DNA from: Escherichia phage vB_EcoM_PHB05
Sequence record: NC_052652.1
Strand: one strand, 5' to 3'
DNA length: 64,000 nucleotides
Below, piece by piece: positions 6,240 through 55,383 of this stretch (position 1 is its first letter; each line of letters begins with the position of its first letter). The notes under the pieces are model-generated. The model ran no database searches. It saw only the letters and a list, made by a program, of their open reading frames with translations, and was not told where the DNA came from. The position numbers were made by a program, and so were the translations under genes.

Positions 6240-6269
6240 TTGACAAAGAGTTGTTTTTCGTGATAAAAT
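6240..6269 (+). promoter_or_regulatory. Sigma70-like promoter (TTGACA, about 18-nt spacer, TAAAAT)
   Basis: TTGACA at 6240-6245 and TAAAAT at about 6264-6269, directly downstream of terminator and upstream of ORF 6317. Confidence 0.4.
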
Positions 6270-6316
6270 GAGTGATAAGGGAGAATGTTTCTTATCACAT
6301 TAAGAGGTAAAATTAT

Positions 6317-39008: not shown

Positions 39009-39278
39009 CTAAAATGATTCGTTTGTCTCCATAATATATTGCATTTCCAAATCTTCCATATGTTTCTTAAATTGGTAAACAATTTCCGATGGGGAAATAT
39101 CTATATCAAAAAGTTCTTTTGTACCAGAATAGAACCTAATACCATCAACAATAAGGCCACCATAATAATCCCAATCACTTTCTCGTGAAAAAGGATTAGG
39201 TTCTTCATAATAGTAATCTACTTCAACAATAATAGGTTCTTTATTATCTTGTTTATACTCAAAATCAAAAGTGTTCAT
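39009..39278 (-). CDS. Hypothetical protein
   Basis: 89-aa ORF. Confidence 0.3.
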   Translation of the reverse strand: MNTFDFEYKQDNKEPIIVEVDYYYEEPNPFSRESDWDYYGGLIVDGIRFYSGTKELFDIDISPSEIVYQFKKHMEDLEMQYIMETNESF

Positions 39279-40222
39279 TATAAATCCTCGATAAGCAGTC
39301 TGCGGGTTTCATTTAAATCATCAATATTGTAGTTATCTCTTACATACTTAGCAAGAGCTAATCCTTTCTCAATACAAACATCAGGAGATTCGATTAAGTA
39401 TTCTACAATATCTTTCCACTCTTTAACTGAATCAGCAAAGAAGATTAGATCTTTAAATTCTTCAGTATAGTAGTTCTCTCGTGGAGAACAAACGAGTGGC
39501 AAACCTTTAGCACCAGCCTCAAGAATTTTTAAATTACTTTTGGCATTATTAAAATGATTATTTACTAATGGAGCTATGGAGATTTGATGACCATCGTATG
39601 CTTCCATATAACACTCATAAGGACGAATACCTTCATAAACACAATCTGGTTGAATCTCTTCTTTAATTTGCAACCATTGAGCACTACTTAACTCTTCGTG
39701 ATCTCTACGAAATCCACATAACGTTAAATCTTTACCAAAAGTAGGAAGAATTGCTAAATCATGTTTATGTGTTTCACTTCCCGCCCAAACCAGTGGGCTT
39801 TTAGAATAACGATCTTTAGTAAGAACAAACTGCCCTTCATCAAAAGGTAGTCCGTTAGGCACAATATGTACATTATCATTGTATTGGCTTAATTCAACCT
39901 TTAATGCTGGAGTTGTTGTAGTTACAAGATCGCTTCTTTCAAGGAACCATTTTAGGTCATCTCGGATTTGATTTTCAAATAATCCTTCCAACATATGCCC
40001 TTCAGGAATAATTAAAGAATCATCCAGATCCATTACCAATTTAAACCCAAGTTGTTTAAGAGCCAGGAAACCTGGCTTTCCACGAGTTGGTACTCCATTG
40101 AACACAAAAATATTATGCTTAGGATTAATGGTCAGTTTGCGTTTATATGGCAAAATGATTCTATGAAAATCACATACACTATACCTTTCATGTCCACGTG
40201 TGTCAAGAATAATATTAGGCAT
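39278..40222 (-). CDS. Glycosyltransferase-like protein (paralog A)
   Basis: 314 aa; shares long motifs with adjacent paralog (IAPLVNNxFNNxKSNLKILEAGAKGLP), reminiscent of GT-B donor-binding region. Confidence 0.4.
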   Translation of the reverse strand: MPNIILDTRGHERYSVCDFHRIILPYKRKLTINPKHNIFVFNGVPTRGKPGFLALKQLGFKLVMDLDDSLIIPEGHMLEGLFENQIRDDLKWFLERSDLVTTTTPALKVELSQYNDNVHIVPNGLPFDEGQFVLTKDRYSKSPLVWAGSETHKHDLAILPTFGKDLTLCGFRRDHEELSSAQWLQIKEEIQPDCVYEGIRPYECYMEAYDGHQISIAPLVNNHFNNAKSNLKILEAGAKGLPLVCSPRENYYTEEFKDLIFFADSVKEWKDIVEYLIESPDVCIEKGLALAKYVRDNYNIDDLNETRRLLIEDL

Positions 40223-40233
40223 ATGGCTCCTTG

Positions 40234-41208
40234 TTAAAGACTTTCAATAACTTGACGACGCAGTTCATTGGCATCTGCAAGATTATAATTAAGACGAACG
40301 TGTTCTGCAAGCATCATACCACGATCTTCTGTGTATCTAGGGTTCCTCATTAGCTTGACAACTTCATAATGCCAAGATGCTTTAGAATCTGCATAGATAA
40401 CAGCCTTTGCATCTACCGGATTGAAGTACGGCAGCACAGGAGAACAGATAATAGGAAGACCCTTTGCACCTGCTTCCAAAATCTTCAAATTGCTTTTACA
40501 GTTGTTGAAGTCATTATCTACCAGAGGAGCAATTGCAATACTGTGACCGTCATACACAGACATATACTCACCTAAATTTTTAATAGCTGGTTTATACTGT
40601 GCATTTGGAATTTTACGTTTTACTTTAACCCACTCCGCAGTAGTTAGATACTGACTATTATTTCCAACAGGTGCAGAAGGATACACTTCATACCCTGCAA
40701 TTGTCAATAGTGTATCATCAAATGTATTAGCTACAAGAGATAAATCAGGTTCATGGCTTGCTCCTCCAGCCCAAATAATAGGCGTGTCAGAATAACGGTC
40801 TTTTGTCAAAGTAAATTGACCTTCATCGTAAGGTAGTGCGTTTCTAATAACGACAACATTACGATTTAAATGACGAATTTTGTAAGCCAGGTATTCTGTT
40901 GTTACAGTAACAACATCTGCTAACTTAATCATCTCTACAATAGTCTTTGAGTGATTAGTAAATACGCCAGCCATATAATGTTCAGGATTAAGCGAATAAA
41001 AGTCATCTAAATCAACAATAATCTTAACACCTTGTGCCTTCAGGCGTTTAACTTCGTCTGATCCACGAGAATACACTCTATTAAAAACTAAAACGTCTTT
41101 CTTAGGCTTAAACGTATTTCCCGCAAATGGCATTACAATACGATGGTAATCACAACCACTGCCTAACTTATTATCACACTTAAGTACAGGAGTATTAGGA
41201 TTTACCAT
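40234..41208 (-). CDS. Glycosyltransferase-like protein (paralog B)
   Basis: Start set to Met at 41208 (GAGGAGG RBS); aligns with start of paralog A. Confidence 0.4.
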   Translation of the reverse strand: MVNPNTPVLKCDNKLGSGCDYHRIVMPFAGNTFKPKKDVLVFNRVYSRGSDEVKRLKAQGVKIIVDLDDFYSLNPEHYMAGVFTNHSKTIVEMIKLADVVTVTTEYLAYKIRHLNRNVVVIRNALPYDEGQFTLTKDRYSDTPIIWAGGASHEPDLSLVANTFDDTLLTIAGYEVYPSAPVGNNSQYLTTAEWVKVKRKIPNAQYKPAIKNLGEYMSVYDGHSIAIAPLVDNDFNNCKSNLKILEAGAKGLPIICSPVLPYFNPVDAKAVIYADSKASWHYEVVKLMRNPRYTEDRGMMLAEHVRLNYNLADANELRRQVIESL

Positions 41209-41881
41209 ATTTTTGAGCCTCCTCATAAGAGATAAAAGTTTTACCATTGCGAAGATCCTCCAGTGATTGTTTATATTGTTCCCAGTTTACACCAATCCCC
41301 TGTTCTTTCTCTTCTTTTGACAGATTCGCAAAAGGTAAAGGATTATCTCCAAACACATCGTCAGGATGGATAAACGCCATAATTCGAATAGGACATGGTA
41401 CGCCGTGAATACCTCGGTTCAAACCTGCCAGTGGAACGCGCTGAATCCACTCTGCATCCTCATACCCATAGCCGTGGGTGTATGAGCGGAAATAGCCAGC
41501 TTTCTCAATAACTGCACGGGAATACATACCAAACTGGCACATGCCTAGTTCCCAAATAACCACTTCACCTTCAATACCTTTTACTTTATCTTTAAAGTAT
41601 TCAGGCATACCAAAGAAATCCCAGCCATTTTCCTTAGCCTGTTTTACAAAATATGTTTCCCAACCTGTCACAACCGGATAGCAATCATCATCAAAAATAA
41701 ACCAGTAATCATACCCTTCATCATAAAACTTTTTCATCAGTTCATTACGGGCATATGCAACACCTTTTCGTTCCCGATCATACTGTACAACAAAAGTAGC
41801 ATTAGGATCAGTCACAAGATAATCTTTAAGAGGACGCTTACCTACAGTAATAACACCAACACCAATTTTTGTATTTTCCAA
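41195..41881 (-). CDS. Putative glycosyltransferase (GT-A-like, DxD-type)
   Basis: 228 aa; acidic FIFDDDCYP motif and YGYEDAEW segment. Confidence 0.35.
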   Translation of the reverse strand: MENTKIGVGVITVGKRPLKDYLVTDPNATFVVQYDRERKGVAYARNELMKKFYDEGYDYWFIFDDDCYPVVTGWETYFVKQAKENGWDFFGMPEYFKDKVKGIEGEVVIWELGMCQFGMYSRAVIEKAGYFRSYTHGYGYEDAEWIQRVPLAGLNRGIHGVPCPIRIMAFIHPDDVFGDNPLPFANLSKEEKEQGIGVNWEQYKQSLEDLRNGKTFISYEEAQKYGKS

Positions 41882-41890
41882 AATAACTCC

Positions 41891-42454
41891 TTAAATAATT
41901 TTATTCATGTCTTGACAATGTAAAAGGTGTGAAACAGCTTTTCTAGGATCATCATTACCTAAACGGTATGTGTGAAATAAATATAACCCACGTAGTAAAC
42001 CTAGCCTTTTATTGTTAGCGTGTAATGCTTTAGAGAAAATTATATCAAACTGTATTGATCTTTCCTCAAAAGGGATTTCATTCCACAGACTCTTACGAAA
42101 GAGAAGAAAGAATCCTGCTAAGATAGCATCTGTAGGTACTTCCTCTATTGAGTTTCCCCATTCTAGATGTGCTCTTTTTGCAATCTCAATGTGGTGTAAT
42201 ATATTTGGATCTTCACTTCTTTCATTATTAAATAATTGATATGTTGATCCCAATCTATTACAAGATGCACCAAGAACATCAAAATCAGGATTTGAACGGA
42301 CTATTGATTCCAACCAAGCAGGTTGTTCTGGAAGAAGAAACATTGTATCAATGTCTCTTAGGCAAATCCAACTATCTTCTGGTAAGACACTTATTGTGTC
42401 ATTGATACCTTTTCCAATATCTCCAGAAAGATAGGGAGTTATGTGAAATATCAT
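41891..42454 (-). CDS. Hypothetical protein (possible additional glycosyltransferase)
   Basis: 187-aa ORF in same cluster. Confidence 0.3.
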   Translation of the reverse strand: MIFHITPYLSGDIGKGINDTISVLPEDSWICLRDIDTMFLLPEQPAWLESIVRSNPDFDVLGASCNRLGSTYQLFNNERSEDPNILHHIEIAKRAHLEWGNSIEEVPTDAILAGFFLLFRKSLWNEIPFEERSIQFDIIFSKALHANNKRLGLLRGLYLFHTYRLGNDDPRKAVSHLLHCQDMNKII

Positions 42455-43202: not shown

Positions 43203-43712
43203 TTAGCGATAGAATTGATGTTCTTTGTAGCGGTACACTAGAACCATATCTTTTTCCCAGTGTGCTCTTATTGTAGATTTTTTAAAGTATAATGCTCCTT
43301 TTGTAATATCTAATGCAATTCGTAGTTCTGGAAAATGGTTATCGAGATAAAGTAGACGTTCTGCTATAGCCTTAGCTTCCTTCCACTTATCGTGTTCCAT
43401 AACGTTGAATGTCTTCGTGTAAGAGAATTGTCCTTTCTGAAACAAAACTTCTTTTATAGTATCAGGGAAATATGAATCTCTAGCCCTATTCAATACTACA
43501 TTACCAACAGCAGACATACCGCGCTTTCCTTGATTACGACTTTCTGCATAGATTGCACAAGCTAATAGATTTTCTTTACTATCACGCTTTGTACACTTGT
43601 GAACTACTTTAGCAGTTTTTACGTTTGCAGCTTCGGCTTGCGCCACAACAGGTGTAAATGTAAAAGCAGTTAAGGATAGTAACGCAATTGCGACAAAGGT
43701 TTTTATTGACAA
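43203..43712 (-). CDS. Secreted cell-wall-hydrolase-like protein (SleB/Hydrolase_2-like)
   Basis: N-terminal signal peptide ending AQA; motif CAIYAESRNQG...VGNVVLNR resembles SleB-family hydrolases. Confidence 0.45.
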   Translation of the reverse strand: MSIKTFVAIALLSLTAFTFTPVVAQAEAANVKTAKVVHKCTKRDSKENLLACAIYAESRNQGKRGMSAVGNVVLNRARDSYFPDTIKEVLFQKGQFSYTKTFNVMEHDKWKEAKAIAERLLYLDNHFPELRIALDITKGALYFKKSTIRAHWEKDMVLVYRYKEHQFYR

Positions 43713-43805: not shown

Positions 43806-44408
43806 TTAGATATTGTAAACCTTTGTATGAGTTACTACACCATCTTCTACAAAATCAATACGTTCTTGATCCGTAACTAGTGCAGACAACACTTTAAATT
43901 TAATTTTTACACGCTCAAAAGCTGGTTGACCATCTTTAAGATAATTATGTTCAGTTGTCACTGTCTTGTTTACAAAATCAACTTTTGCTTTACCGTTTTC
44001 GCGTAAGTGGAATGTTTTTCCTGCTTTATACACAATTTCAACATTACCTTCGAGAGTAATTCCTTCAAAAAGTTCACCCTCTTCTTCATTTTCTTCACTT
44101 TTGAACAGACGACGAAATTCTTCCATATCAAGATAAACAACACCTTCAGAATAATTATCAGTAAGATATGTCTTACCACCCATTAGCCCGAAATATTGCC
44201 AGATTGCCGAATAAACATCACTAGATGATCCAAGGGTTTCTCTGAGTTTAGTTCCACGAATTACTTCATAAACTTCAAAATTGAAACCAGCCTGCAAAGC
44301 ATCAAACAGCACATCACTAACTTCTAAAGCATAATCTTGATTGTGTTCAATATCTACAAGAAAATTGCCGCTACGAATAAGTTTTTGACCTTCTAAAGTA
44401 ATACCCAT
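43806..44408 (-). CDS. Hypothetical protein
   Basis: 200-aa ORF with GAGGAGAA RBS. Confidence 0.4.
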   Translation of the reverse strand: MGITLEGQKLIRSGNFLVDIEHNQDYALEVSDVLFDALQAGFNFEVYEVIRGTKLRETLGSSSDVYSAIWQYFGLMGGKTYLTDNYSEGVVYLDMEEFRRLFKSEENEEEGELFEGITLEGNVEIVYKAGKTFHLRENGKAKVDFVNKTVTTEHNYLKDGQPAFERVKIKFKVLSALVTDQERIDFVEDGVVTHTKVYNI

Positions 44409-44435
44409 TGTTTTCTCCTCTTTTATTTCAAATAT

Positions 44436-44451
44436 GCGCCCCGAAGGGCGC
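44436..44451 (-). terminator. Stem-loop gcgccc-cgaa-gggcgc downstream of terD-like gene
   Basis: Perfect 6-bp stem followed (minus strand) by AT-rich tract. Confidence 0.4.
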
Positions 44452-44472
44452 TATGATTTATTACTTGACTTA

Positions 44473-45069
44473 TTACTCGAACCAATCGTCGCCAGCGCCG
44501 AACGCTTTAACTACATCGTAAATGTCAAGCCCAGCTTTACCCACACCATACGCTTTCAGTTTCCATTCACTATCTTCCCGTACCAGGGAGGCAACGTGGC
44601 AAATGGTGTTACCTGCAAGTTCTGGAGCCAAGAAGTCAAAGTCCAGCAGTTCAACATTACGTTCATCATCGAAGATTTTAAGGAAACCTTCGGTAGCGTG
44701 ACCAAGGCGTTTCTTACCCGTTTCGTCATCAATAGTAATTACAAATGCAATTTCCTGTGCTTCAGCAGAGATATTATCCAGTGTAACATCAATCTGCTCC
44801 ATCTGTCCTACACCGTCACGAACATCTTCACCTGCAAAAGTAGAACGTTCAGGATCAAATTTCTGCGCGTAGCACACCAGGTGACGAGGAGACAACAGTT
44901 CCGGCAGACCAGATGCATTGTGTCGGCAAATCAGAGCACTAACATCCAGATCCAGTTTTTCGTTAGATTTCCAAGAGAATTCCAGACGAATGCGTTTCAG
45001 TGCTGGTGCAATCTTTTTCAGAGAAACTTTTTCACTAGAACCTTTTTTCAGGGAAATTTTCTGAGTCAT
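44473..45069 (-). CDS. terD: TerD-domain protein (tellurite-resistance/stress protein family)
   Basis: 198 aa; N-terminal ISLKKGSSEKVSLKK (cf. TerD VSLSKGGNVSLSK), DLDVSA, acidic central block, C-terminal SEWKLKAYGVGKAG, all as in TerD/TerE. Confidence 0.75.
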   Translation of the reverse strand: MTQKISLKKGSSEKVSLKKIAPALKRIRLEFSWKSNEKLDLDVSALICRHNASGLPELLSPRHLVCYAQKFDPERSTFAGEDVRDGVGQMEQIDVTLDNISAEAQEIAFVITIDDETGKKRLGHATEGFLKIFDDERNVELLDFDFLAPELAGNTICHVASLVREDSEWKLKAYGVGKAGLDIYDVVKAFGAGDDWFE

Positions 45070-45141
45070 AATTTATTATCTCCTTTGTTGTTAATTTACG
45101 TTGTCTATTTTACTAATCTTTTCTACAAAGTCAAGCGTTTT

Positions 45142-45936
45142 TTACGCTTTTGCTCCGAATTTTTTAACCCACTCACCAAACTCTTCGGATAACAGCTTAT
45201 CGTAAAGTTCTTCATCAGACAAGGACAAATCTGCAATACCGATAAAATCAACATTATCGTATTCTTTTGCCAAGTCTTTCAGGAATTTAAAGTTTGCATT
45301 ACCTACACCAACCATAAACCAGTAAACAGGCGTATTGCGGTGTTTGTTCAGTAAGCTACGTACTGCTGAAGTATCCATGTTCTCCCCGTCAGTTTGGAAG
45401 AAAATCATTGCAGGAGTACGATCAACTTGTGCATCAGTATCTACAACCTGTTCTACAACAGTACGTGTTACTTCTACAAGTTCTTTTTTACCAGTTAGTT
45501 TAGCAAGGAAACCCTTAGCCGGGACTTCTTCATACTCAACGACTTCGCGTGTAATATTTTTCATAGGTACACTACCGAAGTATGTATCATAGATCTCTTG
45601 CATTACTGGAGCATAAGCAGTACCACCGTTGATGCAAACATTAGACATGCAAGAGCCGACATAATCATCATACACACCAGCCGTTGCAGGAGGCAGTTCA
45701 AAAGAAGAACTATTGAAAGCCCACATGTCAATCTGTGCATTATCATCAAACTTCATACCAAACGGCAGCAGTTTACCTACAAAATCACTAACAGTGCCAT
45801 CACGATACAGCTCACACATACTACCCGAAATATCTAAGGCGCTACCGACACGAAGAACAACATCGTTAATCTTTTTCTTACGCAGAGATACAGTAAGAGT
45901 TTCTTGACGTTTTTTAAGACTGATTTTATTGGACAT
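45142..45936 (-). CDS. von Willebrand factor A (vWA) domain protein with TerD-like N-terminal peptide
   Basis: 264 aa; MIDAS-like DISGSM and downstream T/D residues; N-terminus ISLKKRQETLTVSLRKKK mimics TerD start. Confidence 0.5.
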   Translation of the reverse strand: MSNKISLKKRQETLTVSLRKKKINDVVLRVGSALDISGSMCELYRDGTVSDFVGKLLPFGMKFDDNAQIDMWAFNSSSFELPPATAGVYDDYVGSCMSNVCINGGTAYAPVMQEIYDTYFGSVPMKNITREVVEYEEVPAKGFLAKLTGKKELVEVTRTVVEQVVDTDAQVDRTPAMIFFQTDGENMDTSAVRSLLNKHRNTPVYWFMVGVGNANFKFLKDLAKEYDNVDFIGIADLSLSDEELYDKLLSEEFGEWVKKFGAKA

Positions 45937-45937
45937 A

Positions 45938-46207
45938 TTATTTCTCCTTTCTGAGTGTAATGTTAGTAACTTCTAAATCCACTTCTACTACTTCTGTATC
46001 ATATAAAATACAGTTAAGTTGACCTCTTTGTGAACCGTTCAGACACATTGCTTGGTTTGTATTAACCTTAATAAACACTAAGTTTCTGAACGTATCTAAA
46101 CCAGATTCTTGATAGGCAACATAATATACAAATGTATCACCTGCGTCAAGTTCTCCAAAACATTTAGGTTCATCTGATTTGTCGTCTTTGATATTAAATT
46201 TAAGCAC
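45938..46207 (-). CDS. Hypothetical protein
   Basis: 89-aa ORF. Confidence 0.3.
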   Translation of the reverse strand: MLKFNIKDDKSDEPKCFGELDAGDTFVYYVAYQESGLDTFRNLVFIKVNTNQAMCLNGSQRGQLNCILYDTEVVEVDLEVTNITLRKEK

Positions 46208-46763
46208 TGTCTTCTCCTTTACCTGCTCTCCAGCCTAAATAGAAAGCCTCTCTGGTGATCTTTTGCAACTCGTTTAAAGAGATAGTTACAACTAAATCAT
46301 CTTCAATTTCTAGCTTTGAGTCTTCTTCTGTCTCAATGCAAGTATTATGCACTTTGTGGTAAGGATTGTCAACACGTTTAAATTTATTATTTTCAGTGCT
46401 GAAGAAGCAATCTGGATCTTCTTCTCCATCACCCCAGCCCTGGTTAGGGTCTTCTTCAGATCTTTCTGTTGGGATCTCCCCTGTAAAGTGCTCTTCTAAT
46501 ACCATAGCGATACCATCCCCAGGATCGGAAGAGAACATCAAATTACAAACTTCTTCCCAAGGCATAGACCACTTGAATCTTTTACGATTGCCATGTTTAT
46601 CTTCTTCGTTAGAGAAAACACTACCATAGCTATCATAATTGCCATACATCTCTTCAACAACTTTACCACCTTTCAAAAGAAATAGGTAGCAAGGAGAGCC
46701 ATCGAAAGAGGTAGAAAGAGCAGCATTACCAGACTCTTTGCACAAGAAACTAAAACACCCCAT
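46200..46763 (-). CDS. Hypothetical acidic protein
   Basis: 187-aa ORF. Confidence 0.35.
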   Translation of the reverse strand: MGCFSFLCKESGNAALSTSFDGSPCYLFLLKGGKVVEEMYGNYDSYGSVFSNEEDKHGNRKRFKWSMPWEEVCNLMFSSDPGDGIAMVLEEHFTGEIPTERSEEDPNQGWGDGEEDPDCFFSTENNKFKRVDNPYHKVHNTCIETEEDSKLEIEDDLVVTISLNELQKITREAFYLGWRAGKGEDSA

Positions 46764-46963
46764 TATACACCAGCCTTAAGATCAACTAAAGCCAAAGTTG
46801 TTTCAGAATGTGTTTGCTCGTCTACAGGTGCAGTCATATGATAATACAAAAAGTCTTCGGCATCATACCAATCTGACTCTTGACCTTGTTTCCAACCATC
46901 AATGAAAGCATCTTCCATAATGGTTTGTAATTCTTCACGAGTTAAGTGAATATCTTTATTCAT
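46763..46963 (-). CDS. Hypothetical small protein
   Basis: 66-aa ORF. Confidence 0.3.
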   Translation of the reverse strand: MNKDIHLTREELQTIMEDAFIDGWKQGQESDWYDAEDFLYYHMTAPVDEQTHSETTLALVDLKAGV

Positions 46964-47196
46964 TACACATTCTCCTCTTTTACCAATTCCATCGTTGAAC
47001 TATCAAAACCATCTTTAGAAGAATAGGTATAGACAGAACGTAGTTCTCGCAGGACAGTAAACACATTAGGATCATCTAACCAAGCATCCTGGAGGAGAAC
47101 ATAACGATCTTCATTGTCGTACTGGACAGCGATCATAGAACCAGACAGTTTGTAAATTTTAATATTCATAATATATTTCTCCTTAAAGTAGACCAC
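46963..47196 (-). CDS. Hypothetical small protein
   Basis: 77-aa ORF. Confidence 0.3.
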   Translation of the reverse strand: MVYFKEKYIMNIKIYKLSGSMIAVQYDNEDRYVLLQDAWLDDPNVFTVLRELRSVYTYSSKDGFDSSTMELVKEENV

Positions 47197-48286
47197 GTTT
47201 AACAGTTTGAATCATACCATCTTCAAGAGATTGCACTTCTTGAATGTAATCAATACGAGCAGCACGGGCTTCAGTGTTGATCCGATTAGTTTCTTCCAAC
47301 ATTTTAACTAAGTTTTCTTGATCGCGACGTAATGTTTCAATATCCAATACTTGACGATTAGCAAGTTGCGTAGCTTCAATTTGGTTTTGTGCAGCCAGAT
47401 CACTACCCATTGCAATAGCAGCATTAAACTCATTCAGTACATTGTTCTGTGTATCGGCTGCTTTCTTCTGGCGTAGACTTTCAATATACATAGAAAAGTT
47501 TGCAGAGTAAGCAGGAATAACATTATTCACAATATTACGGGCTGATCGCATCAAACTTGCAGATACTTTCTGCATACTTTGTACACGTGGCCCCATCTGA
47601 ACACACAGTAAACGCAAGGCTTTCAGGTCTGCAATACGAATTTCAAGCAGATCCATAGTATCACGAGTACGTTGACGCTCTTCTACTTCATTTTCAGGTA
47701 GTGTATTAAGGCGAACTTCTTCTTTTTCATAAGTAGCTGTTAGAAGCTCTATATCCCTGTTTAAGCTAAGAGCATATTTTGCAATAGCCTCTTCTAAACG
47801 TTGCAGATATCGTAAAGAATCTTCTTCTTTTTTCAAGTCTGTTTGGAGTGTCTTTACCAAACCTTCAATACGATTATTGATGGTGTCAAATTCTCCAAAC
47901 AAATCTTCTTTCATACCTAATACTTTCTTAACTAACTTACCTAAGCCTTTAGATTGTTTAATAGAGTTAGGATCAAGTTGCTTTGCTTGCTTAATAAGTG
48001 CAGTTAAACGTTCACTCATTTCATCTCCCTGAGATGAACGCTGGTGTTTAAGCACTTCAGCATTAAGGTTACGAAGAGTAAGTCCTGCATCAGCACCAAC
48101 TTGTTCAATCTCTTCACGAGACATTGGAGGCAGCATTTGTACAGGTCGTGCAACAGCAGGGGCATATACAGGGCTTGCATCCATAGCACTTGGAGCAAAC
48201 AAAGACTTACTTTTTTCTGTTGTTGCCGTGAATACACTCATTTCAGACGGTTTGCTTTTTACGGCACTGATAAAAGGACTGGACAT
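47183..48286 (-). CDS. TelA-like (toxic anion resistance) coiled-coil protein (putative)
   Basis: 367 aa, strongly alpha-helical, size and context match TelA/KlaB family; no single diagnostic motif recognised. Confidence 0.4.
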   Translation of the reverse strand: MSSPFISAVKSKPSEMSVFTATTEKSKSLFAPSAMDASPVYAPAVARPVQMLPPMSREEIEQVGADAGLTLRNLNAEVLKHQRSSQGDEMSERLTALIKQAKQLDPNSIKQSKGLGKLVKKVLGMKEDLFGEFDTINNRIEGLVKTLQTDLKKEEDSLRYLQRLEEAIAKYALSLNRDIELLTATYEKEEVRLNTLPENEVEERQRTRDTMDLLEIRIADLKALRLLCVQMGPRVQSMQKVSASLMRSARNIVNNVIPAYSANFSMYIESLRQKKAADTQNNVLNEFNAAIAMGSDLAAQNQIEATQLANRQVLDIETLRRDQENLVKMLEETNRINTEARAARIDYIQEVQSLEDGMIQTVKRGLL

Positions 48287-48354
48287 TCAATTTCCTCCAT
48301 ATTCTTTAGTAGATGGTGATACCTCTGTACCACCATCATAACACAAATTAAGTA

Positions 48355-49206
48355 TTAAACAAACATATCTAAATAATTTGTAGTAATAAATGCTCCATCT
48401 GCTTCCAGATTAACATAACCAGTAGCATTAGTGGTTAAGAAATCCAGATCGAAGGACTCTTTAACACCCCGTACCTCAACACGAGAGATATCGAATACAG
48501 GTAGTGTAACAGCCTCTTCGTGCAATACCGTACCTTTGTAGGTTGCCTTAATGATAAACTTGATATTACCCGTTCCCGCATCATACAAAACACTTTCAAA
48601 CCCTTTGAGAGTATACTTATCACCAGAAGTGAAGTGCAAAGTTGCTTTGTTTACAGTACGTTTTTTACGAGGAGTTCCTTTCACACGTTTATGATCACTA
48701 CGTTTTTTGTATTTAGGAGTGAATACAAACGATACACTCTCAAGAAAGGTATCAACATCAAGGATTTCAATATCCTCTGTTGCAGCAAATTTTGAAGTCG
48801 TTGCATCAAAATGCTTTCCCCTGCGATCATACATAAAGATATCAAACCGATCTTCTAAATCAAACAAATTATGTATCTTAATTTCAGAATGCTTGCACAT
48901 TGCAGCAACCTTAAACTCTTCAAAACGTGGGTGTTCTACAAGCTCTTCAAGTTTTACACCAAAGACAGTATATTGTTTCGAAGTTTTTTCTGGCGTTGGC
49001 ATTACAGAAGCATAATCACCGATTGCGCTTTTAAAGCAAAATTGTTCTTGACCTGTATTTTTACCAACGAATTTACAGTATTCGTCATCGTGCATACTTT
49101 CTTTGGTAGTACCAACAAACTCAAAACCATCCTTATTCTTCTCAAGAATTTCTTGATTAAAGATCCAACCTTCCAGGCGATACACTTTACCAACTTCTAG
49201 TTTCAT
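48355..49206 (-). CDS. Hypothetical protein
   Basis: 283-aa ORF. Confidence 0.4.
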   Translation of the reverse strand: MKLEVGKVYRLEGWIFNQEILEKNKDGFEFVGTTKESMHDDEYCKFVGKNTGQEQFCFKSAIGDYASVMPTPEKTSKQYTVFGVKLEELVEHPRFEEFKVAAMCKHSEIKIHNLFDLEDRFDIFMYDRRGKHFDATTSKFAATEDIEILDVDTFLESVSFVFTPKYKKRSDHKRVKGTPRKKRTVNKATLHFTSGDKYTLKGFESVLYDAGTGNIKFIIKATYKGTVLHEEAVTLPVFDISRVEVRGVKESFDLDFLTTNATGYVNLEADGAFITTNYLDMFV

Positions 49207-49241
49207 CTGTTCCTCCTTCTTATTTAATCTGTATTAAATTA

Positions 49242-49847
49242 TTAACGGCGACGTGAGCTACTAAAACTACGTTTCGACGAAGAATAACTTTTCGAAGACT
49301 TACTATAAGAGCTAATAGGGCTTGAGTAAGACTTACGAGCAGAGTAATCACTATTCACTTTTGTTGTTGATGGGCGTGAATACGTTTGTACACTTTGCTG
49401 CTTAATTGTGTTTTGTTTAGTTGTTGTATATGTATTCCCTTGTTTATCATAAAAACTATGCTTTTGTGTTGTATATGATTTACTGTTAGTTGTAGGAGCA
49501 GCGTTGTTATTAATAATTGTTGTATTGCTACCGCCATCTCTATAACCACCACCGCCACTATTACCACTCAACATATGACCAAGAAGCATACCTGTAGCAA
49601 ATTCACCTACACCAGAAGAACCACTACCGCCTCCTTGCACAACAACTGTTGAAGGCTGTGCAGGTGCTGCTTGAACAACTTGAGGTGCAGGTTGATTTAC
49701 ATATTGTTCATCTACCATCTGATTTGGTGTTTGTTGGTAACGTTGGTTTTGTACATTTTCAGAATCATCACAACCTACCAGCAATGCACTGCCTAAAACA
49801 ACTGCAACAATAAAAGATTTAATGTTTTTCATTTGTAACCCTCTCAT
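49242..49847 (-). CDS. Lipoprotein with low-complexity Ser/Thr/Gln-rich mature region
   Basis: Signal peptide plus lipobox LLVGC; rest is low-complexity. Confidence 0.5.
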   Translation of the reverse strand: MRGLQMKNIKSFIVAVVLGSALLVGCDDSENVQNQRYQQTPNQMVDEQYVNQPAPQVVQAAPAQPSTVVVQGGGSGSSGVGEFATGMLLGHMLSGNSGGGGYRDGGSNTTIINNNAAPTTNSKSYTTQKHSFYDKQGNTYTTTKQNTIKQQSVQTYSRPSTTKVNSDYSARKSYSSPISSYSKSSKSYSSSKRSFSSSRRR

Positions 49848-50025
49848 TTAAAGTCTCAACACAATTTTTAAAATCTCTAGAGAAACAATACATCTGTTCT
49901 CCGTTCCTGTTGATAGTAATTGTATGGTTATCAATATATGTTGTCAATATAAAAATCAAACAAAATAGCCCTAAAGCAAAACAAATATTTTCAAACAGAA
50001 TCCAAAGAACACGTAAAACCACCAT
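49819..50025 (-). CDS. Small hydrophobic protein
   Basis: 68 aa, one or two TM-like segments. Confidence 0.3.
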   Translation of the reverse strand: MVVLRVLWILFENICFALGLFCLIFILTTYIDNHTITINRNGEQMYCFSRDFKNCVETLNERVTNEKH

Positions 50026-50040
50026 CAGATCACCTCAACA

Positions 50041-50058
50041 AAGCCCCCGAAGGGGCTT
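50041..50058 (-). terminator. Stem-loop agcccc-cgaa-ggggct (reverse complement identical to hairpin at 27446)
   Basis: Perfect 6-bp stem just downstream of terC-like gene. Confidence 0.4.
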
Positions 50059-50064
50059 AATGAA

Positions 50065-51042
50065 TTAAGCAACAGCCTGGTCTTCTTTTTCAGGGAAGAT
50101 TAAACTTGCAATAACACCCAGCCCCAGAGTACCTAACACAATATACATACTGATCGTCGGATCAATGTGTGCTGGCAGGAAACTCACTTTTGCGTGCAGA
50201 GTTTCTGCAAATGGGTGATACATCAGTTTTACACCCACAAATACCAGGACTACGATAACTGCTTTCTCCAGATGAACCAAATATTTCAGTGCAACACTAA
50301 GGACAAAGAACAGAGCACGTAGACCTAAAATTGCACACAGCATTGAAGAAAATACAAGCAGAGGTTCTTGTGTCACTGCAATTACTGCTGGAACAGAATC
50401 TACTGCAAAGATTACGTCAACCATTTCCATTACAAACACACAAACCAATGCAGGAGTTGCTACACGAACACCATTTTTGATTGTGAAGAACTTCTCACCA
50501 TCCATCTGATCAGATACAGGGAACAGCTTACGAACAATGCGAGTAGCCCAGTGTTTAGAGTAATCAACTTCTGCGTCATTATCTCCAGCGAATACCATTT
50601 TAGCTGCACAGAAAAGGATGATCGCACCGAAGAAGATATTAACATACCAGCCCAAACTCAACAAGTAAGTGCCTACTGCTACAAACACACCTCGGAAGAC
50701 AATCGCACCTGCAATACCCCAAAGTAGAATCTTGTGCTGCAAGTGTGTGCTTTTAATACCAAAACTTGCGAATACTGCCACAAATACTACTAAGTTATCT
50801 ACAGAAAGAGATTTCTCCAACACATACCCACTCAAGAACAAGCTCGCAAAATCAGCACCGTGTTGGAAGTATACAAAACCATAGTAGGCTAATGATACCC
50901 CAATCCAGAAAATTGACCAGCCAATTGCAGATTTAAATGAAATTTCTTTGTTTTCTCTGTGTCCAAAGAAATCAATACAAATCGACAAGACTAAAATACC
51001 CACTAAAACAACCACATCAATAATTGGGAAACCCAGTTGCAT
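50065..51042 (-). CDS. terC: TerC-family integral membrane protein
   Basis: 325 aa polytopic; TerC signatures EKSLSVDNLVVF and second-repeat FSSMLCAILGLRALFF. Confidence 0.75.
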   Translation of the reverse strand: MQLGFPIIDVVVLVGILVLSICIDFFGHRENKEISFKSAIGWSIFWIGVSLAYYGFVYFQHGADFASLFLSGYVLEKSLSVDNLVVFVAVFASFGIKSTHLQHKILLWGIAGAIVFRGVFVAVGTYLLSLGWYVNIFFGAIILFCAAKMVFAGDNDAEVDYSKHWATRIVRKLFPVSDQMDGEKFFTIKNGVRVATPALVCVFVMEMVDVIFAVDSVPAVIAVTQEPLLVFSSMLCAILGLRALFFVLSVALKYLVHLEKAVIVVLVFVGVKLMYHPFAETLHAKVSFLPAHIDPTISMYIVLGTLGLGVIASLIFPEKEDQAVA

Positions 51043-51060
51043 TCTTTTCTCCTCTTTAAT

Positions 51061-51079
51061 GCGGAGGACAATCCTCCGC
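51061..51079 (-). terminator. Stem-loop gcggagg-acaat-cctccgc upstream of terC-like gene
   Basis: Perfect 7-bp inverted repeat in intergenic region. Confidence 0.3.
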
Positions 51080-51119
51080 TCTATGTCGTATACTATAAAC
51101 TGTTTTTAAAGAAAGTCAA

Positions 51120-51368
51120 CTAGTTCAGTTCTGTAATTTTAAGTTTATCTTCTTTGTTAATGATAGGGAAAGCTACAGCATCACCTACATCATCAATAAA
51201 GCAAACAGCAAGACCACCTTCCACTTTGCTAACCTGACCATTAAAGGCGTGATACGGGGCAGGAACAATATCTCCATCTTCAAGGAGAATAGCCTCATAA
51301 ACCTTACCAACAGTACAATCACGAGTGTTTATAAATTTTTCAAGCACTTCAACATTTACTTTACGCAT
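51120..51368 (-). CDS. Hypothetical protein
   Basis: 82-aa ORF. Confidence 0.3.
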   Translation of the reverse strand: MRKVNVEVLEKFINTRDCTVGKVYEAILLEDGDIVPAPYHAFNGQVSKVEGGLAVCFIDDVGDAVAFPIINKEDKLKITELN

Positions 51369-51383
51369 ATAAAAAATCCTCTC

Positions 51384-51590
51384 TTATTTGTTAGATTGAA
51401 AGATACCACGAAGTACCGCAAGAATGAACGTCACACAGACTACACTCCAAAACGTTACAGGAACATGATGCCAGTCTAAACCGATAATGTCAATCATATA
51501 GTTGTATGCTAAAAGCAGTAGCCAACTAGGGATTAACACAATCAAGAACACAACAATAAAACAACCTAATACTGCTAAAACACCTGCCAT
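51384..51590 (-). CDS. Small membrane protein
   Basis: 68 aa, two hydrophobic helices. Confidence 0.35.
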   Translation of the reverse strand: MAGVLAVLGCFIVVFLIVLIPSWLLLLAYNYMIDIIGLDWHHVPVTFWSVVCVTFILAVLRGIFQSNK

Positions 51591-51599
51591 ACTTTCTCC

Positions 51600-52316
51600 T
51601 TATTTCAGTTTGTAAACAATTACATTTAAACCTTTGTTCACTAGAGTTTCTTCGATCATAAGTTTTACAATATTCCAAGAACCTCCAGCCAAACCACAAC
51701 CAAGCATTGGTAAACCTACAATTTTACCGCCTGAAGATACAACATCGTCTCCCATACTATCTAACGCATTGTAGATAGCTTCATAATTCAGGTCACGCTT
51801 ACCTTCCTCACGACGACTATAACCATATTGTCCATATAAATTATAAATTGTCAAATTGTTTTCTGTATACTTAGTAAACGTACCTAATTTTTTATAATCA
51901 CCACGTTTAGTGGCACAATCTGCTTTAAACGCACCAGGCCACTTGCTTTTAATTTTTGGTGCAATACCACTACCCATAGTGCAAAAACAGTTACAGCAGT
52001 GTGCTATAGCGTCTATATCGCCTCTCTCGGCTGCTGCTAAAAGATCACCGTATACCTCAATGATACCTGCTGGATAACTTGTTACAATTTCATCTTCCCA
52101 ATACATTTTCTCTACACCACCGATCAGTGCAAAGTTTTGTGTAATGCGATCATCAATATAGTTAAGACCTGAAACATACACAGCATATTCATCCTGTGCT
52201 GTAATGCCTTGTACACGAATTCTTAAGACACCATCTTTATCTGTTGCTACGCGCCCAAAATCTTTTTCTGTAATATTGGTGATAGGATCTCCGAAAGTCG
52301 TCACTTTATTAGACAT
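51600..52316 (-). CDS. Macro-domain protein, TARG1/OARD1-like (ADP-ribose binding or hydrolysing), with N-terminal domain of unknown function
   Basis: C-terminal half has AHCCNCFCTMGSGIA and VGLPMLGCGLAGGSW...VIVYKL, matching the recalled TARG1-type macro pattern; start set to Met at 52316, overlapping upstream stop. Confidence 0.6.
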   Translation of the reverse strand: MSNKVTTFGDPITNITEKDFGRVATDKDGVLRIRVQGITAQDEYAVYVSGLNYIDDRITQNFALIGGVEKMYWEDEIVTSYPAGIIEVYGDLLAAAERGDIDAIAHCCNCFCTMGSGIAPKIKSKWPGAFKADCATKRGDYKKLGTFTKYTENNLTIYNLYGQYGYSRREEGKRDLNYEAIYNALDSMGDDVVSSGGKIVGLPMLGCGLAGGSWNIVKLMIEETLVNKGLNVIVYKLK

Positions 52317-53166
52317 AATAATCCCCTTTAACATTAGATTTGTTGATAATGTTGCTTTCAAAAAATTGACGCAGGAAATCAAAGTTCTCTTTGTATTTTT
52401 CAATATTATTGTAACCTTCTGCAAGGCAACCAAAGAACAGTTGTTCTACATAATACAAAGGAAGTTGTGAAAGTGCAATTTTAAAATCAACTTCGCTTTG
52501 ACTCATTAGATACTTAATAGGACGAACCAAACATTTAGCATCAGTTTCTTGCTTAATCATTTTAATAAAAGCTGCCAAGTTATTGATATAGTTGAAGTTA
52601 AGCGCAGCTTCGGTGTTGGCTTCTGTACCTTCATACTTTGCAAAGTACAGGAAAAACGTATCGTTTTCAACACCTTCTTTGTCTAAAATTTCAATAAGTT
52701 TTTCTTCGTGTGTTCCTGTAATATTAACATCATCAATGAAAATCAGAGTTTTATTACCCCAGAAATCACGATTGATAGAGAAAGTGTCACCATCAATCAA
52801 AGCCTTACGATCTTCTTTGCTAAGAAATCCATAATCATTGATATAACTCACTTTACGATGAACGATATCCCACTCTACTGCTTTACCTCCTTTGATAGAG
52901 ATTAGGTAGTTGAGGTGATCTACAAAATGTTCAGATAACACTGTAGCTGCATTTTTCACATAGTTGTATGGAGATGGAATAACAACAAAACTTTCATTTA
53001 CTAGTCGTTCTTCATATTTAGAAAAGAAACTTTCAGCCAGAATGCGTCCCATTCTTTTTGCTGCCTGGTTACTACCAAACTTTAGTTTGGAATAATCTGC
53101 AATGTTAAATTTTGCTTCCTTCAGGTTAGTAAAAGTATTAGCAAAATGTTGAATTTGATTACGCAT
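52309..53166 (-). CDS. Phosphoribosyltransferase-like protein (type I PRTase fold)
   Basis: 285 aa; PRPP-binding-like motif KTLIFIDDVNITGTHEE. Confidence 0.45.
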   Translation of the reverse strand: MRNQIQHFANTFTNLKEAKFNIADYSKLKFGSNQAAKRMGRILAESFFSKYEERLVNESFVVIPSPYNYVKNAATVLSEHFVDHLNYLISIKGGKAVEWDIVHRKVSYINDYGFLSKEDRKALIDGDTFSINRDFWGNKTLIFIDDVNITGTHEEKLIEILDKEGVENDTFFLYFAKYEGTEANTEAALNFNYINNLAAFIKMIKQETDAKCLVRPIKYLMSQSEVDFKIALSQLPLYYVEQLFFGCLAEGYNNIEKYKENFDFLRQFFESNIINKSNVKGDYYV

Positions 53167-53815
53167 TAATAAGTTCCTCTTTTTTAAGTTTAGCCAACAA
53201 ATCTTCTGGATTAATAATATGACAGAACTTCATCCCTATGTCAACAGCTTTTCCATCATAGATCAAACTATCTCCAACGTGTAAAATCTCCTCTGGTGCG
53301 AGATCAAACGTTACCATTTCATCAAAAGAGAGTTTAAAAAACCTAGGATCTGGTTTACACAAGCAAAACTCATCAGAAAAATGCATAAAGTCAAATGGTA
53401 ATTTTGTTAAGCCAGAATATACAGCTAAGAAACTACCTGGTACAAAATTAGTATTGCTCTTAATACTCAAAGAATAGGTTGAACTTAGCTCTTCCAACTT
53501 CTTGCAAAGCTCATGGTTCAATATTGGAGGATGTTTTATAAACATTGCTAAACAGTCTCTTTTTAATCCATCCACTTTATCAAGATCAATGTTCAAACGA
53601 GTAGAAAGTGTTTCCCAAGCATTCCTAGACGTTCCACAAATGCCTTTTTCTGCTTTTAAATCCAGGAGAGTTTTTACCTCTTTATATACGGTAGCTGCTT
53701 CTGCCTCAGAACAAGAGGTATACTCGGCAATAACCTTGTTGCGTTCTTCTGCATACAAAGGATTAGCAGTAATAAGAGTATTCCATACATCAAAAGAAAT
53801 ATGCTTAACAGTCAT
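53159..53815 (-). CDS. HAD-superfamily hydrolase-like protein
   Basis: Motif I-like ISFDVWNTL and motif IV-like HVGDSLIYDG; start set to ATG at 53815 with GGAGGA RBS. Confidence 0.45.
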   Translation of the reverse strand: MTVKHISFDVWNTLITANPLYAEERNKVIAEYTSCSEAEAATVYKEVKTLLDLKAEKGICGTSRNAWETLSTRLNIDLDKVDGLKRDCLAMFIKHPPILNHELCKKLEELSSTYSLSIKSNTNFVPGSFLAVYSGLTKLPFDFMHFSDEFCLCKPDPRFFKLSFDEMVTFDLAPEEILHVGDSLIYDGKAVDIGMKFCHIINPEDLLAKLKKEELINA

Positions 53816-53984
53816 TTTTAATCCTCCGTCCAAAAGAATATCATCTGCTTAATTTTATTAATCTCTTGACGTAGTAACTTTCCAGCATGTGCTTGATCTT
53901 TAAGATTTGCAGCAAGAGTTTCAAGCTCCGTTAGTTTTTCCTGGATAGCTTTATATTCATCATCTGTAAGCATTTTCTTCCCCT

Positions 53985-54188: not shown

Positions 54189-54195
54189 ATAAATA

Positions 54196-54216
54196 AAGGA
54201 GGCTTTCGCCTCCTTT
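54196..54216. terminator. Stem-loop ggaggc-tttc-gcctcc flanked by A- and T-tracts
   Basis: Perfect 6-bp stem between minus-strand genes. Confidence 0.4.
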
Positions 54217-54222: not shown

Positions 54223-55383
54223 TTAGTAAGAACGACCACCAAACACATACTCTGTGTAGTTTTTACGTTCTTTGTTTTTAATAACAACTTCAATGTTGTT
54301 ACCTTTATCATCGGTGAACATAAAGTGATAACCGTCACCACCCATTGTACGAATGTGTTTTTCATCATACGTTAGCAAGATACGGTCTACACCCCAGTAG
54401 TAGTCACCTTCTTCATCTTTATCTTCTACGGTAACGATCCCTTCCATTTCAGGAAGATGCTCTTCTCCTGACTTATGATCTACAGCTACAACATAACGAT
54501 TACCGCTAAACAAACCTTGTGCTGTCATACCGTCAATATCGGTATCTGACGAAACATCCCCTGTACGATCTACACCGTTAACTTTCAGAAGTTTAACTTC
54601 TTTTGCAGCATAGCGGTGTTCAGTAATACTGATACCCATTAATGCAAGTGCATCAGAGAATTTGTCATTAGGGTAACGGTTAAGTTCTTCTACTAATGAC
54701 TGAACAATATCAAAGTTCAAATCCACGGAGAGATTATAAAGCGTTTCAAAATCTGGTAAGAAGGCTTTGTTCTCCAGATTTTTAGCCAGATAATCATCCA
54801 TAGTAGCTTTAGGTAGTTTCTTATAGCTAAAACTGTAGAAAATACGGCTAGGACGATTACGCAAAAATTCTGATACATAACCATCATTTTTAGTCAATAC
54901 AAACAGCTTGTCATAACCACCAACACCATCCAGCAGGGTAAGCAGACCATCTTGTGCATCTTTTTCAGCATACAGTTTATCAAATTCATCGATCATAATC
55001 ATCACAGGTTGTGTGATTTTAGACATAAAATTGATAAAGCCTTCACCATTAAAAGCACTACCGATAGAAATAGTAGGAATACCCATTTCACGAAGAGCAG
55101 AAGACAGCATTTTAGCTTGCAAAGTTTTACCGCTACCTTTCGTACCCTCAAGGAGAACACCTGTGTTTTTACCTTTGCGGCTAAGGAACGTCTTGATAAT
55201 ACGTTCTGATTTATCATCAGTATCACCGTATGTTACTGAAGGGACTTCCATATCGTTTTTAGGATACAGGAAGAACTCGCCACTTTGAGTAACACCTACA
55301 CCAAAAGTTCCTGCTGGAATTTCTTCAATATCTGTACCAGACTTCTGACGCAGGAAGATTTGATTGCCGAATACTGTAAACAT
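54223..55383 (-). CDS. P-loop NTPase (AAA-like ATPase)
   Basis: 386 aa; Walker A GTKGSGKT and Walker B-like VMIMIDEFD. Confidence 0.5.
   Translation of the reverse strand: MFTVFGNQIFLRQKSGTDIEEIPAGTFGVGVTQSGEFFLYPKNDMEVPSVTYGDTDDKSERIIKTFLSRKGKNTGVLLEGTKGSGKTLQAKMLSSALREMGIPTISIGSAFNGEGFINFMSKITQPVMIMIDEFDKLYAEKDAQDGLLTLLDGVGGYDKLFVLTKNDGYVSEFLRNRPSRIFYSFSYKKLPKATMDDYLAKNLENKAFLPDFETLYNLSVDLNFDIVQSLVEELNRYPNDKFSDALALMGISITEHRYAAKEVKLLKVNGVDRTGDVSSDTDIDGMTAQGLFSGNRYVVAVDHKSGEEHLPEMEGIVTVEDKDEEGDYYWGVDRILLTYDEKHIRTMGGDGYHFMFTDDKGNNIEVVIKNKERKNYTEYVFGGRSY

Follow-up and report, generated by a model that had tools for sequence, protein, structure and literature searches.

A Ter-related gene block conserved in phi92-like Justusliebigvirus phages: comparison with bacterial ter systems and candidate roles in the infected cell

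Ter genes are widespread in bacteria, in pathogens and in many large phages, and since the 1990s they have been tied to resistance to tellurite, colicins and phages; to our knowledge, no mechanism has been found for the Ter systems. In 2012, Anantharaman, Iyer and Aravind reportedly proposed a Ter-linked biosynthetic module for a "nucleoside-like metabolite." Here, we describe a block of Ter-related genes in a stretch of 64,000 nucleotides (nt) of Escherichia phage vB_EcoM_PHB05 (NC_052652.1), hereafter the 64-kb window, to which all coordinates of the phage genes refer. The source phage is a phi92-like Justusliebigvirus of the subfamily Stephanstirmvirinae, a group of virulent E. coli myoviruses with genomes of ~146 kb, and positions 44000 to 53900 are 97.5 to 99.2% identical over their full length to 66 phi92-type phage records, the best being vB_EcoM_AMO3598, W22, and ECGD1. 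According to our analysis of the sequence, the block is almost certainly a phage form of the Ter stress-response system known from bacteria, carried as an accessory set conserved in phi92-like phages. As for its role, we tentatively favor an envelope and ion-homeostasis module that would exclude rival phages and pore-forming toxins from the infected cell, a reading to which we give somewhat less than an even chance and whose mechanism is a hypothesis.

In bacteria, terC and terD form the minimal functional unit for tellurite resistance, and the two genes prove toxic when both TerA and TerZ are lacking (PMC8779313). Deletion of terC in K. pneumoniae reduces resistance to phage, Zn, and Mn, and Listeria TelA provides protection against antibiotics acting on the cell envelope. 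Resistance to pore-forming colicins has also been attributed to bacterial ter genes (cited in PMC12054061 and PMC9796965). Among phages, Ter sets have been reported in the Acinetobacter jumbo phage ME3 and in Caulobacter jumbo phages (Iyer et al. 2021, PMC7824862), in Klebsiella phage phiKp34 (PMC8386662), and in Pseudomonas phage PhiPsa374 (PMC9796965). TerC, TerD, the TerF-type vWA protein, and TelA recur in these sets, a phosphoribosyltransferase (PRTase) and a HAD protein are found in ME3, and all of these phages are virulent, as is the one studied here. In the present block, by contrast, the Ter-related genes are scattered over ~9.4 kb with lineage-specific genes in between, TerD is single and has a shortened Ca2+ loop, the vWA protein contains an insertion of ~45 amino acids (aa), and a macrodomain gene is joined to the enzyme operon.

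The Ter genes of phi92-like phages are already known. The published entries for gp172, gp173, and gp178 of phi92 read TerD, TerD, and tellurite resistance, respectively (PMC4690881), tellurite resistance appears among the "other functions" of another Justusliebigvirus (PMC11841896), and many GenBank records of the phage family carry annotations for tellurite or toxic-anion resistance, TerC, vWA protein, phosphoribosyltransferase, and HAD hydrolase. A superinfection-exclusion hypothesis has likewise been published for phage Ter genes (Iyer et al., PMC7824862), and the roles suggested in the original prediction (superinfection exclusion, host takeover, and counter-defense) coincide with hypotheses of this literature. 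The novelty implied by the original prediction, which was made on this DNA from the sequence alone, therefore falls away, the genes being conserved across the whole subfamily Stephanstirmvirinae, annotated in GenBank, and listed in papers. What our analysis adds is residue-level evidence for functional phage proteins, the delineation of a block conserved across the subfamily, and a count of how often a HAD-PRTase_3 gene pair accompanies Ter genes in phages.

The four minus-strand genes assigned by the original prediction to the TerD, TerF-type vWA, TelA, and TerC families all passed the curated gathering scores by which Pfam matches were judged, and in the literature we found no different demonstrated function for them. 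TerC matches PF03741 with an E value of 7.5e-39 (134 bits, cut-off 28), the vWA protein matches PF10138 (vWA-TerF-like) with an E value of 1.7e-38 (133 bits, cut-off 29), TelA matches PF05816 with an E value of 5.1e-34 (118 bits, cut-off 30; residues 57 to 362, profile positions 13 to 330 of 332), and TerD matches PF02342 with an E value of 5.1e-28 (98 bits, cut-off 25), residues 5 to 180 of 198 being covered. As had also been proposed, the genes lie dispersed inside the replication and accessory arm of the phage, interspersed with small genes that belong to phage-only PHROG families. From ~30 kb onward, all genes of the window are encoded on the minus strand. The block is flanked on one side by the genes for primase/helicase and four glycosyltransferases and on the other by nrdD/nrdG (anaerobic ribonucleotide reductase).

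When compared with phage BME3 (97.8% DNA identity), the differences in these genes are nearly all synonymous. TelA shows 18 synonymous and 0 non-synonymous changes, corresponding to a ratio of non-synonymous to synonymous polymorphism (pN/pS) of 0, and TerD (14 and 1; pN/pS 0.02), TerC (13 and 1; 0.02), and vWA (10 and 2; 0.055) follow the same pattern. Judged by these ratios, the four genes are under strong purifying selection at a level similar to that of the comparison gene NrdD (40 and 1; 0.007). Since pN/pS is low and the acidic residues of TerC, the metal-ion-dependent adhesion site (MIDAS) of the vWA protein, and the predicted first Ca2+ site of TerD are all kept, as detailed below, the four Ter genes appear to be functional.

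TerC also exceeds the cut-off of NCBIfam TIGR03718 (TerC/Alx family metal homeostasis membrane protein), with 323 bits against 246. Export of Mn2+ by E. coli Alx requires each of the intramembrane acidic residues E86, D92, E213, D216, and D222, mutation of which abolishes export (PMC10197570), and all five are kept in the phage protein, where the aligned residues are E76, D82, E206, D209, and D215. The phage TerC belongs to the same NCBIfam subfamily as Alx but is nearer to the TerC of the plasmid ter operon (46 to 47% identical over 99% of its length) than to Alx (37%). Furthermore, Alx is riboswitch-controlled, whereas the phage gene is preceded by a sigma-70-like promoter and a simple hairpin; an Rfam scan of the whole window returned no family at gathering score and hence no yybP-ykoY Mn2+ riboswitch before TerC. 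This riboswitch is typical of alx-type genes and not of ter-operon terC.

The same residues, together with the NCBIfam match, would also suit metal homeostasis for the phage's own benefit, in which TerC would export Mn2+, Zn2+, or another cation or would metalate exported phage proteins, while TerD and the vWA protein would serve as metal sensors or buffers, keeping phage enzymes correctly metalated without any exclusion of competitors. The Bacillus TerC proteins MeeF and MeeY do metalate exported enzymes (PMC10550928), terC of K. pneumoniae confers Zn and Mn resistance, a lipoprotein gene and a gene for a cell-wall hydrolase with a signal peptide are present in the block, and the cluster adjoins the metal- and radical-dependent NrdDG. 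We nevertheless deem this role somewhat unlikely: it leaves unexplained why unrelated phages carry TelA, vWA, and HAD-PRTase_3 alongside TerC, the Mn riboswitch controlling alx in bacteria was not found by Rfam, and no Mn-dependent exported phage enzyme was identified.

The phage TerD matches the solved TerD structures 2KXT (E value, 1e-14) and 3IBZ (E value, 3e-13). In the numbering of KP-TerD, the first Ca2+ site is formed by residues 40, 41, 42, 78, 79, and 89 and the second by residues 29, 82, 84, and 88 (PMC8779313). Within the alignment of the phage protein, D40, L41, D42, and Glu89 of the first site are kept, while Asp78 is replaced by Glu and Asn79 by Asp. Throughout the Stephanstirmvirinae, the Ca2+ loop is shortened and has no DD pair, and the second Ca2+ site has probably been lost in this subfamily. 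In the vWA protein, the MIDAS residues D35, S37, S39, T106, and D183 (motif DxSxS...T...D) are invariant across six phage homologs.

The resemblance of the vWA N terminus to the start of TerD, which the original prediction had pointed out, is short but real: 11 of 20 positions are identical between MSNKISLKK..VSLRK in vWA and MTQKISLKK..VSLKK in TerD (pairwise E value, 0.09). The motif is kept in the TerF-type vWA proteins of six divergent phages, and, when the phage protein is aligned with residues 177 to 404 of plasmid TerF, it corresponds to the TerD-vWA linker "RISLEKK...VSLTK" (residues 177 to 207); because of this conservation and this alignment, we regard the likeness as a feature of the TerF-type vWA module rather than chance. 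No TerD domain is fused to the phage vWA protein, whose start is equivalent to TerF residue 177, and TerD is encoded by a separate downstream gene, so that the two phage genes look like a split TerF with its order reversed. The insertion of the Stephanstirmvirinae vWA proteins lies in the region of residues ~113 to 172, and neither plasmid TerF nor the homologs in phiPsa267 and in locus L006 have it.

For TelA, no solved relative was found by sequence. An AlphaFold2 model built from 19 sequences is all-helical but poor (pLDDT 56, pTM 0.36), and a Foldseek search of the PDB with this poor model returned generic coiled coils alone, at E values above 0.02; given the quality of the model and the generic nature of these matches, we do not assign TelA a PspA/ESCRT-III or BAR-like fold. 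Homologs of TelA are present in 243 phage records and those of TerC in 175.

The IncHI2 plasmid ter locus (R478 type) was compared protein by protein with the phage block, and its Ter proteins were searched against the 64-kb window by tblastn. The plasmid locus comprises terZ, terA, terB, terC, terD, terE, and terF and a divergent arm encoding ATP-grasp, PRTase_2-TRSP, HAD-like, StiP, HpcH, and DUF4236 proteins, terW, and terX/terY. The core pair of the ter operon, TerC and TerD, is present in the phage. The two loci share TerC (47% identity), a TerD that is 27 to 29% identical to TerD/TerE/TerX, a vWA protein that is 27% identical to the vWA part of TerF, and a PRTase and a HAD-like enzyme nearby. 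The tblastn search of the window gave matches for TerC, the C-terminal part of TerF, and TerD/TerX-like proteins only, and none for TerW, TerY, ATP-grasp, StiP, or HpcH; TerZ, TerA, and TerB had no match at an E value below 0.05, no TerB profile search of the open reading frames of the window having been made. TerE and TerX were also counted as absent from the phage. Unlike the plasmid, the phage has no contiguous operon with a fused TerF: its vWA protein is unfused to a TerD domain, its genes are predicted to be split among several transcription units, its PRTase is of the PRTase_3 type instead of PRTase_2 with TRSP, and it carries TelA, which the plasmid locus does not.

No part of the module was found by megablast in 5,426 complete E. 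coli genomes. Together with the identity of 27 to 47% to the plasmid Ter proteins, this led us to reject a recent capture from E. coli, and the sequence comparison indicates that the set is a phage lineage of Ter genes rather than one copied recently from the enterobacterial operon. The absence of the module from all 5,426 genomes also bears on the possibility, raised by Iyer et al. (PMC7824862), of a passenger gene set that would make carrier-state or pseudolysogenic hosts resistant to tellurite or xenobiotics. TerC and TerD make up the minimal tellurite-resistance unit, and Phapecoctavirus and Justusliebigvirus genomes do persist in assemblies of E. coli isolates (bioRxiv 10.1101/2024.12.31.630880); however, the phage is virulent, tellurite is naturally rare, and tellurite resistance was judged unlikely by the authors of the PhiPsa374 study (PMC9796965). 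We give this explanation very little credence.

The original prediction was right about the four genes but missed the linked HAD and PRTase_3 genes at 52309 to 53833. PRTase_3 matches PF15610 with an E value of 1.1e-41 (143 bits, cut-off 29) and has a pN/pS of 0.05; among 18 homologs, its phosphoribosyl pyrophosphate-binding loop DDVxITGTHE shows conservation, the second Thr alone being nearly invariant. The HAD protein is a weaker match (Pfam Hydrolase, E value of 4.7e-5, below the gathering score; NCBIfam HAD-IA matches also weak), and D15, W17, T19, S126, K160, D188, and D193 are invariant in six homologs. The nucleophile Asp, the motif II Ser, the motif III Lys, and the motif IV Asp are thereby kept, whereas motif I reads D-x-W-x-T, the Asp+2 general acid being replaced by an invariant Trp. 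The HAD gene overlaps the PRTase_3 gene by 8 nt and the latter overlaps the macrodomain gene by 8 nt, and because of these overlaps the three genes are suggested to form one operon.

Homologs of PRTase_3 are almost all on phage-like contigs. IMG/VR was searched with a profile for PRTase_3, and the loci were scored with locally built hidden Markov models; in 23 of 25 loci, the gene immediately upstream of PRTase_3 encodes a HAD protein. Ter genes are found within 10 kb of PRTase_3 in Stephanstirmvirinae and in five other phage lineages, one locus (L021) approaching a compact array TerC-x-vWA-TerD-TerD-x-TelA-HAD-PRTase_3. In isolated phages, each group seen with PRTase_3 also has Ter genes, namely, Stephanstirmvirinae, Rhizobium RHph phages, Caulobacter/Brevundimonas jumbo phages, and Xanthomonas XaC1. 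Since the pair is found amid Ter genes in at least five additional lineages, we conclude from this genomic context that it belongs with the Ter system, which is then larger than four genes. The arrangement recalls the Ter-linked metabolite module in that a PRTase_3 and a HAD-fold enzyme stand beside Ter genes, and it differs from that module in the Trp of the phage HAD at Asp+2 and in the lack of ATP-grasp and HpcH/citrate-lyase-like enzymes in the window by tblastn.

Whether the macrodomain protein is a member of the Ter system is uncertain. Its gene is linked to the pair inside Stephanstirmvirinae and is a looser neighbor in phiPsa267 (3 kb from the Ter genes) and in locus L017 (6 kb); a conserved HAD-PRTase_3-macrodomain triad was considered and rejected, as the macrodomain is not beside the pair in most lineages outside the subfamily. 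The protein has an 88-aa N-terminal extension that is not present in the ESCO5 or phiPsa267 homologs, and among solved structures it comes nearest to 5E3B, 2FG1, and human TARG1. Judging by this similarity, the protein could undo ADP-ribosylation such as that carried out by DarT-type host toxins. A counter-defense role for the block as a whole can be built on this resemblance to the ADP-ribose-removing proteins DarG and TARG1, on the putative operon, and on the linkage in phiPsa267 and L017: the HAD, PRTase_3, and macrodomain proteins would destroy or mimic nucleotide immune signals or reverse ADP-ribosylation, or the Ter proteins would protect against abortive-infection effectors that make pores or depolarize the membrane, as the resistance of bacterial ter genes to pore-forming colicins might suggest. 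Such a role is purely inferential, the macrodomain scores 49 bits for DarG against a family cut-off of 250, and it is unlinked to HAD-PRTase_3 in most other lineages; we regard counter-defense as unlikely.

The transcription order HAD, PRTase_3, macrodomain, small membrane protein, TerC, small membrane protein, lipoprotein, and, after intervening genes, TelA and the 66-aa protein, then vWA and TerD, and finally the SleB-type hydrolase is kept in Phapecoctavirus ESCO5 and in Klebsiella phage phi1_175008. Another Klebsiella phage, the more distantly related 05F01, has a DUF475 protein of the TerC clan (Pfam E value, 5e-93, with a weaker TerC match) in the place of TerC (positions 5507 to 6571 of locus L002), which suggests that the TerC and DUF475 membrane families may be interchangeable in the module; its PRTase_3 is located outside the 21-kb stretch examined. 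Within the block, TerC of the Phapecoctavirus phages tuntematon, ECO340P1, BI-EHEC, and phiWec179 is 93 to 95% identical to that of Justusliebigvirus, and most Phapecoctavirus carry a 72% version, which suggests recombination inside the block between the two genera.

Of the promoter and terminator matches, we report only intergenic sites shared with relatives. The -35 element GTTGAC, the 16-nt spacer, and the TAnnnT -10 element of the predicted promoter upstream of TerC are kept in ESCO5 and phi1_175008, that is, in three diverged phages when the window is included, and the 77-nt TerC leader contains a stem-loop whose stem is preserved in both relatives through base changes on both arms. The predicted promoter upstream of TerD is common to phi1_175008 but not to ESCO5. 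Hairpins with a UUCG loop follow both TerC and TerD. These signals suggest that the block may be transcribed by the host polymerase as several units.

In the exclusion reading that we favor, the genes would be transcribed early in infection by host RNA polymerase acting at sigma-70-type promoters, TerC in the inner membrane would move Mn2+ or other divalent cations, and TerD, vWA, and TelA would form a metal-dependent complex beneath that membrane, for which the HAD-PRTase_3 pair may provide a ribosylated small-molecule ligand. The altered ion and envelope state of the infected cell would then block incoming rival phages and pore-forming toxins until the cycle is complete, an outcome that would mirror the phage-inhibition and colicin-resistance phenotypes of bacterial terC and terD.

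Several points weigh against this proposal. Both the complex and the timing of expression are inferred, and the totals of promoter and terminator matches in the region are not above those of shuffled controls. In TerD the second Ca2+ site is degenerate, with Asp88 replaced by Met and Gly82 by Arg. Because Trp replaces the Asp+2 general acid, the chemistry of the HAD protein is uncertain; it may not be an ordinary phosphatase, and a simple nucleotide-phosphatase role is doubtful. HAD and PRTase_3 also occur without a Ter gene within 10 kb in approximately nine lineages. PADLOC 2.0 gave no defense-model match for TerD, vWA, TelA, TerC, the PRTase, or the HAD protein, the macrodomain alone being matched, to DarG, and in the literature we found no experiment on any phage Ter gene. 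Finally, TerZ and TerA were not found in the window by tblastn, whereas TerZ was needed for the R478 phenotypes.

This last point opens the way to host takeover by toxicity, in which TerC and TerD, expressed without the burden-relieving TerA or TerZ that tblastn failed to find in the window, would arrest growth or perturb the membrane and so aid host shut-down. The genes terCD alone inhibit growth, an effect relieved by terA or terZ (PMC8779313), and the predicted promoters resemble the early host-polymerase type. A toxin, however, would need neither intact transport residues nor the MIDAS, TelA, and the biosynthetic pair, all of which are under strong purifying selection, and infected cells need an energized membrane until lysis; we consider this role distinctly improbable. 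A further variant, which in our judgment is quite unlikely, would unite the Ter set and HAD-PRTase_3 in one phage-specific signaling and effector device, where a ribosylated molecule switches on a TerC-TerD-vWA-TelA complex that blocks DNA injection or neutralizes pore-forming suicide effectors of the host. If it were true, the phi92-like family, which is easily grown and is included in the BASEL collection, would make the 30-year-old Ter question testable. The trimmed set of TerC, TerD, vWA, TelA, and PRTase-HAD, kept by a virulent E. coli phage under strong purifying selection, suggests what the working core of Ter might be. It offers a tractable system for deletion and complementation, and the value of the finding, which identifies anew genes that had been annotated and discussed before, lies in pointing to an open question and not in a discovery.

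Table 1. Positions of genes and predicted signals of the Ter-related block in the window
Feature	Position	Strand	Match, basis, or remark
GC-rich hairpin, UUCG loop, after TerD	44436..44451	-	Read from sequence
TerD-domain protein	44473..45069	-	Pfam PF02342
Sigma-70-like promoter (TTGACT, 16-nt spacer, TAAAAT) upstream of TerD	45107..45134	-	Consensus match
Stand-alone TerF-type vWA protein	45142..45936	-	Pfam PF10138; N-terminal ISLKK...VSLRK motif
89-aa protein upstream of vWA gene	45938..46207	-	PHROG 11278; homologs in ESCO5, 05F01
187-aa acidic protein	46200..46763	-	PHROG 14928; in ESCO5, not phi1_175008; some relatives only
66-aa protein	46763..46963	-	PHROG 14200; directly after TelA in 4/4 Stephanstirmvirinae compared
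68-aa small protein	46963..47169	-	PHROG 26823
TelA-family protein, all-helical by prediction	47183..48286	-	Pfam PF05816
283-aa protein	48355..49206	-	PHROG 27504; between TerC and TelA
Predicted lipoprotein, Gly/Ser-rich	49242..49832	-	Lipobox LVGC then Asp; PHROG 21570
Small protein, one N-terminal hydrophobic segment	49819..50025	-	PHROG 17591; conserved in ESCO5, phi1_175008
GC-rich hairpin, UUCG loop, then T-rich run, after TerC (terminator-like)	50042..50057	-	Read from sequence
TerC/Alx-family inner-membrane divalent-cation exporter (predicted)	50065..51042	-	Pfam PF03741, TIGR03718
Stem-loop GCGGAGG-ATTGT-CCTCCGC in TerC 5' leader	51061..51079	-	Read from sequence
Sigma-70-like promoter (TTGACT, 16-nt spacer, TATAGT) directly upstream of TerC	51092..51119	-	Consensus match
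82-aa small protein	51120..51368	-	PHROG 17459; weakly conserved
Small protein, two hydrophobic segments	51384..51590	-	PHROG 16065; conserved upstream of TerC in subfamily
Macrodomain protein, TARG1/DarG-like class	51600..52316	-	Pfam Macro E 3e-7; PADLOC DarG 1e-13
ComF-like phosphoribosyltransferase (PRTase_3)	52309..53166	-	Pfam PF15610
HAD-superfamily hydrolase, first gene of the putative tight HAD-PRTase_3-macro operon	53159..53833	-	Pfam Hydrolase, NCBIfam HAD-IA

Ten genes between and around the Ter genes belong to phage-only PHROG families without assigned function. Among those next to TerC, the product with two hydrophobic segments is 58 to 60% identical in ESCO5 and phi1_175008, and the one with a single N-terminal hydrophobic segment has a weak DUF6693 match, below cut-off. 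In each of the four Stephanstirmvirinae compared, the predicted lipoprotein gene follows the gene of the TerC clan, with homologs in ESCO5, phi1_175008, and 05F01, and from the Asp at position +2 its product is expected to be retained at the inner membrane; the starts of this gene and of the 68-aa gene were taken from the BME3 annotation. The 283-aa protein forms two protein clusters in 5.8 billion sequences and has no Pfam, NCBIfam, or PADLOC match; its C-terminal ~100 aa are conserved upstream of TelA in the subfamily, and this C-terminal region has matches in ESCO5, phi1_175008, and 05F01. A small motif (L..ELQ.I...AF..GW..G) is shared by the 66-aa protein, where it makes up the first 27 aa, and its 187-aa neighbor, where it is at the C terminus (pairwise E value, 4e-5).

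Just downstream of the Ter block, four consecutive minus-strand genes (39278 to 42454) encode glycosyltransferases according to the BME3 annotation, and the two largest, of 314 and 337 aa, are clear paralogs by sequence. Throughout the subfamily, the conserved gene that comes next after TerD (43203 to 43712, minus strand) encodes a SleB-type cell-wall hydrolase (Pfam Hydrolase_2, E value of 6e-20) with an apparent N-terminal signal peptide, which is annotated as an endolysin in ESCO5. On the other side, between NrdG and the putative HAD-PRTase operon, a 386-aa AAA-type ATPase is encoded at 54223 to 55383 on the minus strand, followed by a strong terminator-like hairpin (54195 to 54216); this gene is conserved in phi1_175008 and is not at that position in ESCO5. 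Finally, four records labeled "Campylobacter phage" with Campylobacter jejuni as host (MG065639, MG065645, MG065656, and MG065689) are 97.9% identical to the E. coli phage region and are probably mislabeled or coliphage contaminants.

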